A program made the translations under genes and the position numbers. The notes below the pieces were generated by a model. It ran no database searches. It was not told the origin of the DNA and worked only from the letters and a program-made list of their open reading frames with translations. DNA of 64,000 nt from an uncultured delta proteobacterium (lineage in GTDB: Bacteria; Myxococcota; UBA727; VGSZ01), in contig CAVZJB010000010.1 in NCBI GenBank assembly GCA_963775425.1, positions 31,361-95,360 of the forward strand, read 5' to 3'. Position 1 is the stretch's first letter; the number at the start of each line of letters is the position of its first letter. This document shows positions 1 through 4,004 of this stretch, piece by piece.

Positions 1-1
1 G

Positions 2-127
2 GTCCGGCGCCGCATGCTCGAGGAGGCCCTCGCGCGCAGCAACACCATCACCGACGCCGCCAAGCTCCTCGGCGTCACCCGCCAGGCCATCCAGCAGGCG
101 ATCGACGATCTCGAGGAAGCGGAGTGA
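2..127 (+). CDS. 3' end of a gene with a C-terminal Fis-type helix-turn-helix (5' part outside window)
   Basis: Frame 2 reads VRRRMLEEALARSNTITDAAKLLGVTRQAIQQAIDDLEEAE then TGA at 125-127; AAxLLGVxR HTH pattern. Confidence 0.7.
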   Translation, partial: VRRRMLEEALARSNTITDAAKLLGVTRQAIQQAIDDLEEAE

Positions 128-188
128 GCGGGCGGCGCCGAGGCGGGCCCCCAGCGCGAAACGACGACGGCATCGTCGCCGCCGGCGC

Positions 189-270
189 GTAGGGCGCCCC
201 CTCGTGGGGCGCGTCGGGCGCCTCGACGGCGCCGGGTCACTCCGATGCGGGGGGCAAGCCCCCGCCCTAC
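189..270. repeat. Inverted pair of GTAG-family REP-like palindromes
   Basis: GTAGGGCGCCCCCTCGTGGGGCGC at 189-212 and reverse-strand GTAGGGCGGGGGCTTGCCCCCCGC at 247-270; a GTAG tetranucleotide precedes a GC hairpin. Confidence 0.75.
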
Positions 271-425
271 GGGTCGTCGACGTAGCCGAGGACGCGAACG
301 GGTTCGAGACGCGCGCCGGGTGTGACGGTTTCCGTGTGGCACCGCAGCGGCGGGTTCGAAACGCGCGCCCGGTGTGACGATTTCCCAAACGCGCTGCGAA
401 ACGACGACGGCATTGCGGCCGGCGC

Positions 426-506
426 GTAGGGCGCCCCCTCGTGGGGCGCGTCGGGCGCCTCGATGGCGCCGGGTCACTCCGATGCGGGGGCAAGCCCCCG
501 CCCTGC
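426..506. repeat. Second inverted REP-like pair (one GTAG degenerated to GCAG)
   Basis: Same two palindromes as 189-270; the right copy ends CCCTGC. Confidence 0.7.
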
Positions 507-596
507 GGGTCGTCGACGTAGCCGAGGACGCGAACGAAACGCGCGCCCGGTGTGACGACTTTCAAACGGCCCCGCGGAGGATCGGCGACGGGTGAT

Positions 597-718
597 GGGC
601 GACGCGAGAGAGATTGAGGAGACGAGGAGCAAGGAACGAAGAACACGAGGTGCGCGGAAGCGACATCGACTCGGACGCTCGGCCGGCGGCCAGCGGATCG
701 CGGCCGGCGGAGATCGGA
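597..718 (+). repeat. Degenerate direct repeat, left copy (partner at 1748-1878)
   Basis: GGGCGACGCGAGAGA (597-611 = 1748-1762), a purine-rich spacer with ACACGAGG, and CGGCCGGCGGCxAGCGGxTCGCGGCCGGCGGAGATCGGA (680-718 vs 1840-1878). Confidence 0.8.
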
Positions 719-762
719 CCTCGACGCGCGGCGAGGCCGAGCCCCGCCGCGCGCGCCGAGCC

Positions 763-1095
763 TCAGCGAAACTTGTAGAGCATGGCGCAGAAGTGGTCGC
801 AGCGATCCTGGCCGACGTCGCGCTCGGCGGCGGTGACGGCCTCGCTCAGGAACGCGATGTCGAGGATGGCGCTCACCTCGCGCGCGCTCCCGGCGGCGAT
901 GTCGAAGTACCGCGCGCGCTCCTTCGCCGACTGCTTGCGACAGCCCTCGGAGAAATTGAGCGTGATGGATGACGACGCGCGGCGCAGTTGGTCCTTGAGG
1001 TCCGCGAAGCCCGGCGGAAACTGCTTCGCGAGCTGGAAGCACTGGCCGTAGATCTCCAGCGACTTCCCGTAGAGGCGAGTGTCTCGGTAGTCCAT
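763..1095 (-). CDS. Four-helix-bundle protein (23S rRNA-IVP / Avd-like family)
   Basis: 110 aa; LKDQLRRASSSITLNFSEG and RYFDIAAGSAREV family motifs; SD GAAGGAGG upstream. Confidence 0.9.
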   Translation of the reverse strand: MDYRDTRLYGKSLEIYGQCFQLAKQFPPGFADLKDQLRRASSSITLNFSEGCRKQSAKERARYFDIAAGSAREVSAILDIAFLSEAVTAAERDVGQDRCDHFCAMLYKFR

Positions 1096-1182
1096 GTTCG
1101 ATCCTCCTTCGAAGGCCGAGCACGGCGGCCTTCAAAGCCTGCGTGGCCGCCGCGCGCAGGCCGAGAAGGAGGACGAACATGG
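1092..1182 (-). promoter_or_regulatory. Predicted three-way-junction leader that sequesters the SD and ATG of the minus-strand four-helix-bundle gene
   Basis: CCATGTTCG(A)TCCTCCTTC 1092-1110 is complementary to GAAGGAGGACGAACATGG 1165-1182; internal hairpins 1111-1133 and 1137-1161. Confidence 0.7.
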
Positions 1183-1242
1183 CCTCGGGGTCACTCGCCG
1201 TTTCAGGAAGTGCTGTCGGTCGTAGGCCGGTTCTCGACGAGA

Positions 1243-1378
1243 GAGTGCTCGCGCTTCATGGCCTGGCCCGTGTGGTCTTCGCGAACCCCGACGTGGGGCC
1301 CTCAAGCGCTTCGCGCTTTTGACGAGGGCCCCACGTCGGGGATCCGCAAGGAGAGCAGGCCATGAAGCACGAGCACTC
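1243..1378 (+). promoter_or_regulatory. Predicted long rod-like leader hairpin that sequesters the start codon of the plus-strand four-helix-bundle gene
   Basis: 1243-1265 pairs with 1356-1378 (22/23); perfect 18-bp inner stem 1286-1303/1324-1341; apical AAGCGC-TTC-GCGCTT. Confidence 0.75.
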
Positions 1379-1694
1379 CCGCATCTACCTCACCTCGCGC
1401 GCGCTCAACCGCGAGGCCGCCGCGCTCGCCAACCGGCTGCCGCGCGGCTTCAGCAACCTGAAGGACCAGCTGCGCCGCGCGTCGGCCTCGGTGACGTTGA
1501 ACTTCTGCGAGGGGAGCCGGCACGAGTCGCTCGCGGAGCGTGGGCGCTACTTCCGGATCGCGTCCGGGAGCGCCGCCGAGGTGAGCGCCATCGCGGATGT
1601 CGCGGAGGACTTCGGCGTCATCGCGCCCGAGCAGCACGCGGCCATCAAGGACCACTGCAATCACCTGTGCGCGATGCTGCGGCTCTACCGGTGA
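1362..1694 (+). CDS. Four-helix-bundle protein (23S rRNA-IVP / Avd-like family), paralog of 763-1095
   Basis: 110 aa; LKDQLRRASASVTLNFCEG and RYFRIASGSAAEV; SD AAGGAG upstream. Confidence 0.9.
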   Translation: MKHEHSRIYLTSRALNREAAALANRLPRGFSNLKDQLRRASASVTLNFCEGSRHESLAERGRYFRIASGSAAEVSAIADVAEDFGVIAPEQHAAIKDHCNHLCAMLRLYR

Positions 1695-1747
1695 TGGCCG
1701 CTCGGCGGCGGAGCTCTGCGGAGCTTCGCCGCTCTCTCGATCGGGAA

Positions 1748-1878
1748 GGGCGACGCGAGAGATGCGGGAGAGGTCGAGGGCCCGCCAGAACGAGCACACG
1801 AGGACACGAGGGACACGAGGGCGGCCCGGATCGGATCCGCGGCCGGCGGCAAGCGGCTCGCGGCCGGCGGAGATCGGA
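1748..1878 (+). repeat. Degenerate direct repeat, right copy (partner at 597-718)
   Basis: Shares the 15-bp and 39-bp blocks with 597-718; contains three ACACGAGG units. Confidence 0.8.
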
Positions 1879-1946
1879 GCGAGACCGCCCCCAGGCTCAA
1901 CGGGTTCGAGACGCGCGCCCGGTGTGACGATTTGCGAACCGCGGTG

Positions 1947-2024
1947 CGTAGGGCGGGGGCTCGTCCCCCGCATCCTCACGCGCGCCCGCCGACGGAAAAG
2001 CGGGGGACGAGCCCCCGCCCTACG
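1947..2024. repeat. Perfect 25-bp inverted GTAG-REP pair downstream of the tRNA
   Basis: CGTAGGGCGGGGGCTCGTCCCCCGC (1947-1971) and its exact reverse complement (2000-2024). Confidence 0.85.
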
Positions 2025-2063
2025 GGTCGTCGACGTAGCCGACGTCGCGAACGGTTGGAAACG

Positions 2064-2137
2064 CGCGCCCAGGAGGACTCGAACCTCCGACCCTCAGCTT
2101 AGAAGGCTGATGCTCTGTCCAACTGAGCTATGGGCGC
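2064..2137 (-). tRNA. tRNA-Arg (anticodon TCT), CCA not encoded
   Basis: GCGCCCATAGCTCAGTTGGACAGAGCATCAGCCTTCTAAGCTGAGGGTCGGAGGTTCGAGTCCTCCTGGGCGCG folds as a cloverleaf with a GTTCGA T-loop. Confidence 0.97.
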
Positions 2138-2165
2138 ACGGCGCGCATGGTAGCGTCTTTGCCCG

Positions 2166-4004
2166 ATGGCGTCGCCGTTCCCGATGGACTTCGGACCCTA
2201 CGTGCTCGACCGCTTCATCGCGGCGGGTGGCATGGCAGAGGTGTTCCTCGGCCGCAGCAAGGACGGGAGCATCTCCGGGCCCCTCTGCGTGAAGCGGATG
2301 CTCCCCGAGATGATGAGCTCCGCCGAGTACATCACGATGTTCAAGGACGAGGCGCGGCTCAGCCAGCGCCTCCAACACCCGAACGTCGTGCGCGTCTTCG
2401 ACTTCGGCGAGGCCGACGGACGGATGTACATGGCCATGGAGTACGTCGACGGCATGGACGTCGGCTCGCTCCAGCGTCGCCTGCGCCAGCGCGGCGAGAT
2501 GCTCGGCGTCGGCCACGCGCTGCAGATCGGCATCGAGCTGTGCGCCGGGCTCCACTACGCGCACGCCCTCGGCGTCGACCTCGTCCATCGCGACGTCAGC
2601 CCGCAGAACATCCTCATTTCGTCTGCGGGCGCGGTGAAGGTCACCGACTTCGGCATCGCCAAGGCCGTCGGCCGCGAGACGCACACGGCCACCGGGCTCG
2701 TCAAGGGCAAGGTCAGCTACATGGCGCCCGAGCAGGCGCTCGGGCAGGACATCGATCAGCGCGTCGATCAGTTCGCCGCCGGCATCGTCGTCTGGGAGCT
2801 CGTCACCGGCCAGCGCCTCTACGCCGAAAAGACCGACAACCTGAACTTCGAAAAGATCATCCGGCAGCCGCCGCCCCGGCCGTCGCAGACGCGCAAAGGC
2901 GTGCCCCCCGTCGTCGACGGCGCCATCCTCCGCGCGCTCGCCAAGCGCCCGGCCGACCGCTACCCCGACTGCGCCGCCTTCGGCGCCGCGCTCAAGCAGG
3001 CGCTCGCCGTCATCGGCCCCGCCGCCAAGACCGACATCGGCGCCGTCATGGCCCACGTGCTCGGCATCCCGCCCAAGGAGCTGCGCGAGGCCGCCAAGCC
3101 GCGCGCCATCGCCGCGCCGGCGCCGCAGGTGACGCGCCCCGGAGCGCCGGCGCCGCGGGCCCGCGCGCTCCAGGTGACGCCCCTCGAGGACGCGCCCACC
3201 GTCGCCACCCCGCAGTCCAAGGTGCGCCACGACCTGGGCGCGCGCCTGCCCACCAACGCCATGATGCCGCTGCCGGAGCCCGAGCCCACCGCGCCCGGCA
3301 CCCCCGCCACCCCCTCCGTGGCGGCCCAGCCCCGCGTCGTCGACGACGGCGACACCATCTACGACCCGCCGAGCACCCTCGAGGTCCCTCCCGACGACGT
3401 GCCCTCGGTCCCCACCGTGCACGTGCCGCCGCCCGCGCCCGCGCGGACACCCCAGGGCCCCGTCGCGGCTCCCGCGCAGGCGCCGCCCCCGGCGGCGCAG
3501 ATCGTCGCCGTCACGCCGCCACGGGCGCCCGTGGCCGCCCGTCCCGCGCCGATGTCGGCGGCCGCGCTGCCGGTGCCGTCGACCGCGGCGCCCGCGCCTG
3601 CGCCCGCGGAGAGCGGGCGCGGTGTCTCCTTCGTCGCCGTCGCCGGCGCGCTCGTGGTCGGGCTCGCCGCCGGCTTCGGCGTCGCGCACCTCACCGGGCG
3701 CGCGCCCGCAGGCGCGACCGGCTGTCCGCTGTCGTCCCCGCAGGAGGAGGCCCGCACGAAGGCCGCCTCGCTCGTGGAGCAGGCGCGCGACGCCTTCCAA
3801 AACGGCGACGCCGCCGGCGCCGACAGGCTCGCCGAGGAGTCCGAGCGCGCCTCGGGCAGCGCCGCCGCCGAGATGCTGCGCGGCGACGTCGCGCTCGCCC
3901 ACGGGGAGCGGCTGTCCGCCCTCACCCACTACCGCTGCGTCGCGCAGCTCGACCCGGGCGGCGTCGACGCCGCCGCGCTCGTCAAGCGCCTGTCGGGGCC
4001 GTGA
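2166..4004 (+). CDS. Ser/Thr protein kinase with Pro-rich linker, TM helix and C-terminal TPR-like region
   Basis: [17 protein letters not shown] and YMAPE motifs. Confidence 0.93.

Follow-up and report, generated by a model that had tools for sequence, protein, structure and literature searches.

Paired four-helix-bundle genes preceded by long leader hairpins in a dispersed multicopy unit of an uncultured Myxococcota genome

The window analysed here is a stretch of 64,000 nucleotides from an uncultured delta proteobacterium of the Myxococcota (assembly GCA_963775425.1, contig CAVZJB010000010.1, positions 31,361 to 95,360), and the locus of interest lies near its start. Two genes, each encoding a 110-aa four-helix-bundle protein, face away from each other there: gene A on the minus strand (763..1095) and gene B on the plus strand (1362..1694), separated by a 266-bp spacer (1096-1361). 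The initial annotation had described two paralogues facing apart with 52 of 110 residues identical, and both the ORF calls and an ungapped BLASTP alignment (52/110 identities, 47%, no gaps) confirm this. Its assignment of both proteins to a four-helix-bundle family also holds, as each matches PF05635 (A, E 1.4e-19 and 70.7 bits; B, E 1.9e-18 and 67.0 bits; cut-off 33.8 bits) and TIGR02436 (70.2 and 62.9 bits; cut-off 24) above the cut-offs. The AlphaFold model of the gene A protein (pLDDT 97.6) has the shape of an up-down four-helix bundle of ~110 residues, with predicted helices at 7-24, 31-53, 57-83 and 89-109. Judged on this model, its closest solved structures are XCC0516 (2GSC; TM 0.90-0.93, 24-26% identity) and BT_0352 (2RLD; TM 0.81-0.87). 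We know of no function for either protein, nor of any leader structure described for them. Neither the A nor the B protein matched any family (0) among the PADLOC anti-phage defence profiles.

The spacer was expected to be highly structured, and it is. Folding of 1080-1400 yielded -191.9 kcal/mol on the plus strand (shuffles -137.3 ± 6.0, z -9.1) and -201.4 kcal/mol on the minus strand (shuffles -135.9 ± 4.5, z -14.7), and none of the 100 shuffles per strand folded as well. In hairpin A (1092..1182, minus strand), the arm 1092-1110, which holds the SD and start codon of gene A (as their complement on the plus strand), pairs with 1165-1182 in 9+9 bp (1092-1100 and 1102-1110) with a 1-nt bulge at 1101. 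This pairing is as originally annotated; the two small hairpins placed inside it are not, since the MFE structure continues as one inner stem (~1114-1163), although the sequence can also be read as two 7-bp hairpins. Hairpin B (1236..1385, plus strand) has outer arms (1236-1265 / 1356-1385) that are 87% complementary over 30 nt and take in the ATG of gene B together with its first 8 codons, as well as a near-perfect inner stem of 21 nt (1283-1303 / 1324-1344, 95% complementary). The reported pairing of 22 of 23 positions between 1243-1265 and 1356-1378 was recovered exactly, the sole mismatch being 1252/1369. The AUG of gene B is fully paired, its SD (~1348-1355) is paired only in part, and its leader carries no CUCC arm. 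Neither hairpin encloses an ORF, as both close upstream, and the sole 5'/3' pairing around gene B joins 1370-1386 to 1760-1776 (17 nt, 88%).

On the plus strand, a mirrored gene-A start (1179..1322) comprises a GGAGGA box followed by an ATG at 1179 and a 47-codon frame. From its sequence, this frame probably represents hairpin A's 5' arm, which is non-coding, rather than a gene; at its counterpart in another genome (G004), the mirrored arm, read off the sequence, opens only ~11 codons. A scan of 560-2200 returned 0 promoter-like or terminator-like sites. A recurrent TTGA(A/G)GG motif before the 3' inner arm (f1 and f4 copies) was considered as a -35 box and rejected for lack of a credible -10 partner.

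The module sits between the end of a regulator gene and an adjoining tRNA-Arg(TCT) (2063..2137, minus strand). It is flanked by a repeat, F, in direct rather than inverted orientation: the left copy (580..731, plus strand) repeats 1738-1878 and shows weak 7-nt periodicity at 680-710, and the right copy (1738..1878, plus strand) carries 8-9-nt periodic ACACGAGG units at 1790-1821 and 7-nt units at 1839-1870. REP-like sequences form the borders, with two tandem units of a hairpin repeat on the left (156..557) and one unit on the right (1899..2062) that abuts the tRNA 3' end and contains a 100% complementary inverted pair (1947-1971 / 2000-2024). Neither terminal inverted repeats nor target-site duplications were seen at ~573 or ~1899, where the borders are blurred by the REP-like arrays on both sides. 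In an Rfam search of 1-2300, the tRNA-Arg was the sole match, with none to rRNA.

This ~1.3-kb unit is a dispersed repeat in the source genome (G000), with three intact pairs and five rearranged or decayed copies. The eight copies and remnants lie on seven contigs, are 94-99% identical (82% for one remnant), have differing neighbouring ORFs and include deletion derivatives. Besides the copy in the window, two of these copies or remnants adjoin tRNA genes, namely tRNA-Arg(CCT) and tRNA-Arg(ACG). Leader DNA occurs solely inside module copies in this genome, and a search of 41 relatives found nothing credible beyond it (four matches, E 1e-4 to 1e-3). The hairpins occupy the middle of the repeated unit, not its ends. 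Sequence changes among the copies are mostly synonymous: the five intact copies of gene A differ by 4 synonymous and 1 nonsynonymous changes and those of gene B by 6 and 1, together 10 synonymous versus 2 nonsynonymous. Both proteins are under purifying selection by these counts. None of the three RVT_1 genes of the genome (C18:1734-2438, C18:106826-107443 and C4:17304-17933) lies less than 100 kb from a module, the nearest module to them being at C18:265 kb. The initial annotation did not recognise the locus as a member of such a dispersed set of copies with repeats on their flanks.

Close homologues in nine other genomes, spanning six GTDB families, are likewise preceded by a hairpin in which an upstream ACCUCC-type arm pairs with the SD and often also with the AUG. 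Stem sequences differ among genomes. The common layout has an ACCUCC-type arm, an inner stem, GGAGGU and, 7-12 nt further on, the start codon. Thirteen hairpin segments show it, namely those of 12 genes in 9 of 10 genomes with the hairpin and that of the metagenome contig L095. Single-protein searches for loci returned one in genome contigs (L064, too short) and one in metagenome contigs (L095, a copy of the G004 type that has the same hairpin). The G004 and L095 hairpins have the layout of hairpin A with another spacer sequence and a matching upstream arm. In the AT-richer genomes G080 and G076, the SDs of two divergent genes form both arms of a single spacer palindrome, which has a GC stem between A- and T-runs at its apex. 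An apical stem, GAGGCCC...GGGCCUC, is conserved in several lineages. The four-helix-bundle genes are found repeatedly in pairs, whether divergent, convergent or fused, with 6-7-nt periodic arrays on either side, and hairpins registered on the SD/start are also found at single genes and convergent pairs, where no partner gene serves as the other arm. A tree of 44 proteins was too poorly resolved to trace the A/B pairs of different families to one ancient duplication.

Duplex energy with the upstream sequence was non-discriminating because values of -35 to -45 kcal/mol arise at any position in a G+C-rich background, and helix-length metrics were used instead. The helix metric covered -18..+3, counted Watson-Crick and G-U pairs with at most two mismatches and took 672 random positions in the same loci as background. 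Values of at least 19 were found in 14 of 45 genes outside the source genome, compared to a background 95th percentile of 17, and all positives fall in the closer subfamily of the tree. By the same metric, the hairpin is absent from a distant 22-gene clade, three G017 genes, three G013 paralogues and two G004 paralogues. The start-sequestering arms sought in homologues are thus kept in the close subfamily and missing from the distant clade and some paralogues, so that the hairpin is a feature of a subfamily rather than of all PF05635 and is not required by the protein family as such.

Formal pair counts were limited to five hairpins of one genus (g45), since MAFFT misaligned the 3' arms across all lineages. 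In these, 91.6% of cells were paired over 34 pairs, versus 84.1% in shuffles, and 10 of the 34 pairs had changed on both sides, versus 3.7 in shuffles. Neither the observed paired fraction nor the number of both-side changes was reached in any of 500 shuffles, and slid controls were 39-50% paired. Across lineages, SD/start probes paired with their own upstream arm at a mean of -36.1 kcal/mol versus -26.2 (sd 6.4) with the arms of other genomes, and the own arm was the best partner for 10 of 15 probes. The suggestion that start sequestration is selected is therefore supported, as close homologues in other genomes keep the SD/start hairpin with different arm sequences and compensatory changes. 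A covariance model of the g45 hairpin detected 14 sense-strand copies in three genomes, all of them directly followed by a four-helix-bundle ORF (11 in the homologue list, 2 cut by contig ends and 1 internally deleted). Protein and structured leader hence form a module, as had been proposed. The model did not detect the G000 and G004 hairpins, and homology of the hairpins across families therefore rests on layout, not on the model. Leader stems are almost pure Watson-Crick, and sense and antisense strands fold equally well overall (47 versus 34 G-U pairs; summed energies of -1041 versus -1037 kcal/mol), with the antisense strand giving the better fold in hairpin B. A palindrome acting at the DNA level would look alike in this respect.

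All four mechanisms put forward initially (translation held off by default, RNase III-type processing, autoregulatory binding and an ssDNA hairpin) are retained as candidates. We favour, at about even confidence, the interpretation that the module is a selfish multicopy cassette, kin to ORF-bearing rRNA IVS, whose leader hairpin keeps translation off by default in an IS200-like manner, with release possibly by RNase III or an internal start. The locus would then be one copy of a dispersed, non-autonomous cassette with two diverged genes of the IVS-protein / Avd fold, each behind a long leader hairpin that holds the SD and/or AUG in its 3' arm and whose 5' arm would duplicate the anti-SD (ACCUCC...) in cis. 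In a transcript carrying both arms, the translation start would be buried in a ~20-35-bp helix, and we propose that the gene is consequently silent by default. It could be opened by transcription starting inside the hairpin, by helix cleavage (RNase III-type, as in IVS stems) or by an unwinding factor. That the helix acts in RNA and blocks translation is what we infer from these structures, and so are the ways of opening it. Counting against such a lock, helices of 30+ bp greatly exceed the usual regulatory RBS hairpins in stability. The lack of promoter- or terminator-like sites in 560-2200, the absence of the hairpin in the distant clade and the part-paired SD of gene B also count against it.

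The palindromes may instead act in DNA, as cruciforms or single-strand hairpins that signal recombination, replication or transposition and so move or copy the cassette, with inclusion of the SD being a by-product of inverted duplication of the gene starts. Near-perfect Watson-Crick arms with no strand bias speak for such signals, and so does the multicopy dispersal with deletion derivatives. So do the REP-like borders, in a genome with 188 REP-like cores where two of the three Y1-transposase (RAYT-like) genes are flanked by such cores. The G080/G076 palindrome could simply be the centre of an inverted gene pair, and PMC4990558 describes IVS elements with PF05635 proteins as hairpin-bounded. 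We nonetheless consider action in DNA unlikely. Neither the leader DNA search in G000 nor the g45 covariance model found a hairpin without a four-helix-bundle ORF, and the hairpins are always registered on the SD/start, including at single genes and convergent pairs. Moreover, those of G000 are mid-unit rather than terminal, and the unit borders, though blurred by REP-like arrays, showed neither terminal inverted repeats nor target duplications. A role as transcription terminators or insulators (attenuators) against outside or divergent-partner transcription, with SD pairing secondary, would suit the apex in G080/G076, where a GC stem with A- and T-runs has the form of a bidirectional intrinsic terminator, and PMC4513863 places one at the same position in IS200. 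However, stems in G+C-rich lineages, including the window, have no T-run after them, the scan found 0 such sites in 560-2200, and termination leaves unexplained why the arm always matches the anti-SD, all of which makes this role quite unlikely.

Compatible with a translational lock, though in itself very unlikely, is that the encoded four-helix-bundle oligomer binds the hairpin, for autoregulation or as its real substrate. Avd, which has the same fold as the gene A model (4DWL and the 8UB7 complex, TM 0.79-0.81), is part of an RNA-protein complex that also contains the reverse transcriptase of the DGR; the apical stem conserved across several lineages and the strict coupling of gene and hairpin also speak for binding, whereas sequence identity to Avd is only 9-10%. 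The arms could, finally, be a functionless, neutral relic of nested inverted duplications, as each 5' arm mirrors its own gene start, and an SD and ATG are even retained in that of hairpin A. Yet the arms are still complementary although the genes are now 47% identical, and complementarity persists across six families with compensatory changes. A relic is thus already disfavoured and, in our view, extremely improbable.

We know of no function assigned over decades to the rRNA IVS ORF, and Avd, an RNA-associated cofactor, is to our knowledge the only family member with a role. With this locus, the PF05635 family acquires a nucleic-acid partner that is conserved and co-varies. Members of the family are also seen to recur as two paralogues (or a fusion) and, in free-living bacteria with large genomes, to behave as multicopy units outside rRNA. 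A "hypothetical four-helix-bundle protein" thereby becomes a testable system (translation block, RNase III substrate, protein binding, mobility), and similar "hypothetical" genes, in their hundreds, would be marked as components of a selfish element. More speculatively, and with considerable doubt on our part, hairpin and four-helix-bundle cassettes could constitute one widespread, undescribed class of selfish elements, with rRNA IVS being the best-known landing site. An Avd-like hetero-oligomer of two paralogues, or its fused form, might bind its own anti-SD hairpin and the 6-7-nt arrays for copying or retention, with the lock silencing the genes until the element RNA is processed.

Our search of the full-text literature (main texts) found neither leader hairpins nor paired genes described for stand-alone members of the family. 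Several known systems share parts of this arrangement. Avd has the four-helix-bundle fold in common with the module; it sits beside the reverse transcriptase in DGRs, whereas no reverse transcriptase is found near the module. XCC0516, the closest structural match, is described in PMC4990558 as a homopentameric ring. MITEs, mobile insertion cassettes and REP-RAYT systems are likewise dispersed as near-identical copies in unrelated contexts without their own transposase, and the module further resembles REP-RAYT in lying among REP-like repeats, with RAYT-like genes at other places in the genome. It may differ from MITEs and mobile insertion cassettes, as neither terminal inverted repeats nor target-site duplications were seen at its blurred borders and the flank repeats F are direct.

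The ORF-bearing 23S rRNA IVS of Coxiella burnetii and Leptospira (S23p ORF) share with the module both the protein family, PF05635, and a long near-perfect helix tied to the translation start of the ORF. PMC4990558 places a putative SD of the Coxiella IVS within a stem removed by RNase III, reports short 7-nt tandem repeats beside the start and regards the element as selfish. Periodic 7-nt arrays flank the Myxococcota cassettes too, and the module helices (~20-35 bp) are long enough for RNase III. Unlike the IVS, the module lies outside rRNA, its genes are paired, its SD is a strong GGAGG box and its helix is wholly upstream of the ORF, whereas the IVS stem of terminal inverted repeats encloses the ORF. 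The module proteins are under purifying selection, while the Coxiella ORF is reported as decaying (PMC4990558). Protein toxicity was considered as a reason for the lock and finds no support in the same paper, where E. coli is reported to grow no more slowly with Coxiella S23p (PMC4990558).

IS200, like the module, is a multicopy element with a ~70-90-nt leader hairpin that buries a near-consensus SD. As described in PMC4513863, its left end carries a bidirectional terminator, which guards against impinging transcription, and a ~70-nt 5'UTR stem-loop, which sequesters the near-consensus SD of tnpA, blocks 30S binding and holds translation at a very low level. The SD lies in the 3' arm in the module leaders as well, except that in gene B it is the AUG rather than the SD that is fully paired. 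The cassette has no transposase, unlike IS200: its ORFs are PF05635 only, and Y1_Tnp genes are found elsewhere in the genome. Its stems are longer and more perfect than those of IS200, and its protein is a four-helix bundle. The G080/G076 spacer, with its terminator-like form and SD sequestration, combines both IS200 features in one palindrome.

The window holds two open reading frames of 110 residues each, gene A at 763-1095 on the minus strand and gene B at 1362-1694 on the plus strand. Profile matches to PF05635 (E 1.4e-19 and 1.9e-18, respectively) and to TIGR02436 ('four helix bundle protein') make both products members of this family, and they are identical at 52 of 110 positions without gaps, just as the initial annotation had counted. 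The predicted model of the gene A protein (65 aligned homologues as input) has four helices with a pLDDT of 97.6. It superposes on XCC0516 (2GSC) with a TM of 0.90-0.93 and on BT_0352 (2RLD) with 0.81-0.87; for Avd, by itself (4DWL) or within the DGR ribonucleoprotein (8UB7), the TM is 0.79-0.81 at 9-10% identity.

The 266-bp spacer between the genes contains two hairpins. The arms of hairpin A are precisely those proposed in the initial annotation: 1165-1182 and its pairing partner 1092-1110, which is complementary to the GGAGGA box and ATG of gene A. The annotation's second proposal, that the ATG and first codons of gene B are paired upstream, was likewise recovered: hairpin B joins 1236-1265 to 1356-1385, which covers the ATG and eight codons, and the inner stem (1283-1303/1324-1344) is near-perfect. 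Folding of 1080-1400 was far more stable than in shuffled sequences (about -137 ± 5 kcal/mol) on both the plus strand (-191.9 kcal/mol, z -9.1) and the minus strand (-201.4 kcal/mol, z -14.7). The mirror arm of hairpin A (1179-1322, plus strand) has a GGAGGA box of its own and an ATG opening a 47-codon frame, probably non-coding, that extends through the 5' arm of hairpin B.

By protein search, 7 of 41 near genomes contain relatives, as do 82 of 401 across the phylum at E <= 1e-12. When the 125 nt before each start were folded, a common layout emerged: a 5' arm opening with ACCUCC (or G/UCCUCC), an inner stem, often GAGGCCC...GGGCCUC, and a 3' arm ending in GGAGGU, followed after 7-12 nt by the start codon. 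It is present at gene A of the window's own assembly (G000), in the relatives G004, G013, G127 and G084, on the metagenome contig L095, at both genes of G063 and of G096, and at three genes of G040. The helix extends across the AUG in G000, G004 and the 'b' genes of one genus, g45. In the AT-richer G080 and G076, just 72-81 nt separate the divergent genes, and this spacer is a single palindrome with the two Shine-Dalgarno (SD) boxes as its arms and an apex shaped like a bidirectional intrinsic terminator.

We scored the helix covering -18 to +3 as Watson-Crick and GU pairs with up to two mismatches. Gene B scored 23-24 and gene A, because of a 1-nt bulge, 16; 14 of 45 genes outside G000 reached at least 19, against a 95th percentile of 17 for 672 random positions at the same loci. 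By this metric no hairpin was found in a distant clade of 22 genes, nor in three G017 genes, three G013 paralogues and two G004 loci (L059 and L063), all scoring 9-17; G017 retains just an 8-bp stem abutting the SD. The five g45 hairpins share 34 consensus pairs, with 91.6% of cells paired versus 84.1% in shuffles and 10 pairs changed on both sides versus 3.7. None of 500 shuffles reached either observed value, and slid controls were 39-50% paired. In duplexes across lineages, SD/start probes bound their own upstream arm at -36.1 kcal/mol versus -26.2 for foreign arms, the own arm being the best partner in 10 of 15 cases. The expectation that homologues carry covarying, start-pairing arms therefore held in several lineages, with compensatory changes in g45, but not in the distant clade or in some paralogues.

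Hairpin and four-helix-bundle gene go together as a unit. Searching with a covariance model built on the g45 hairpin gave 14 copies on the sense strand, all in G063, G084 and G096 (leaving aside one partial match, G063:C63), and no match in G000 or G004; the opposite strand at the same sites also scored, but lower. A four-helix-bundle frame directly follows all 14 copies: 11 are in the phylum-wide protein match list, two run off a contig end and one has an internal deletion.

PF05635 has 13 matches in the 8.26-Mb assembly G000, and a BLAST search with window 1-2300 showed that about 573-1899, with bordering repeats, recurs there at 94.7-98.8% identity. Gene pairs are intact on three contigs (C10, the window's own, C16 and C18). 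C13 has a rearranged double copy, C6 a copy with an internal deletion in gene B as well as a lone, degenerate gene B (82% identity), C2 a copy without gene A (795 joined to 1120) and C11 a remnant (815 joined to 1791). Junctions show microhomology of only 1-3 nt, every site has different neighbouring frames, and leader DNA was not found in G000 outside module copies or in any of 40 relatives. Intact copies differ by four synonymous and one nonsynonymous change in gene A and by six and one in gene B; as these differences are mostly synonymous, both proteins are kept by selection. In sum, the analysis shows a multicopy unit in which a protein gene under selection has its translation start, without exception, inside a helix that is itself under selection. 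A more distant PF05635-like gene with an N-terminal extension (E 7e-5, below the cut-off) occurs twice on G000:C14, at 474-734 and 2945-3205; these two copies are nearly identical and lie 2.47 kb apart.

Direct repeats with weak 7-9-nt periodicity flank the module at 580-731 and 1738-1878. Elsewhere, 7-nt-period arrays flank the cassettes (TCGGNNN type in G063, G084, G096, G080 and G076; TCGAAAA in G013), as do 6-nt-period arrays in G013 (a second type) and G040, in direct orientation wherever both sides are visible. Two arrays beside G013 four-helix-bundle genes are very long, with about 30 copies of a 7-nt unit (L037:1927-2192) and about 69 of a 6-nt unit (L045:1946-2461). Outside the window's flanking repeats lie REP-like hairpin repeats (156-557 and 1899-2062), whose core (2000-2024) has 188 matches in G000; cores occur within 1.5 kb of two of the three Y1_Tnp (RAYT-like) frames there (C18:21969-23243 and C3:259095-260156), the classic REP-RAYT arrangement. 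The last 8-10 nt of each REP-like unit repeat, without a mismatch, the complement of the 3' end of tRNA-Arg (2053-2070, 301-318, 353-370, 531-548 and 1903-1920). Module copies or remnants adjoin three tRNA-Arg genes (TCT on C10, CCT on C16, ACG on C11), and tRNA-Arg 3' ends may be a preferred target.

Pairs are divergent in G000, G080 (three) and G076 (one), and convergent in G063, G096, G188 (two) and G040, where 15 pairs account for 30 of 34 matches. The G040 pairs (e.g., L044, L060 and L062), from another family, combine two distinct four-helix-bundle subfamilies, with an anti-SD/SD hairpin at each gene and hexamer arrays upstream. At G262:C11:544506-548014, four four-helix-bundle genes form a tandem array spaced by about 1,060 bp. 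Among 1.84 billion representative proteins there were 3,200 matches at E <= 1e-3, and the best 150 include many of 245-282 residues that are matched in two stretches; all seven fused public proteins tested (P0017, P0029, P0034, P0038, P0046, P0054 and P0123; 252-275 aa) have two PF05635 domains. From such fusions we infer that the two paralogues may work together.

In RNA, the cis anti-SD arm would hide the SD or AUG, and read-through or full-length transcripts would be left untranslated. This proposed lock would follow the same logic as that described for IS200, where a terminator at the left end acts against transcription running in from outside, and a stem-loop in the 5'UTR hides a near-consensus SD and keeps the 30S subunit from binding (PMC4513863). 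Were transcripts instead to begin inside the hairpin, the outcome would be classic protection from outside transcription, the fold-back inhibition known from IS10. Natural substrates of RNase III include helices of 20-35 bp. The enzyme excises the stems of intervening sequences carrying a PF05635-family protein, and in the Coxiella intervening sequence the putative SD is located inside the excised stem (PMC4990558); by analogy, cleavage of the leader helix could free the start site, or destroy it. The hairpins may also act at the DNA level: overall, the antisense strand folds just as well as the sense strand, and a consensus scan of 560-2200 found no promoter or terminator site by which to favour one of these mechanisms.

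The module is not a 23S intervening sequence, as it is not in rRNA and its stem does not enclose the frame, nor a DGR, with no reverse transcriptase closer than 100 kb. PADLOC matched no family, and a full-text literature search found no description of such a cassette. It can best be seen as a variant on two known themes: like the intervening sequences of rRNA it is a hairpin cassette bearing a reading frame, and like small mobile elements it has an SD-sequestering leader.
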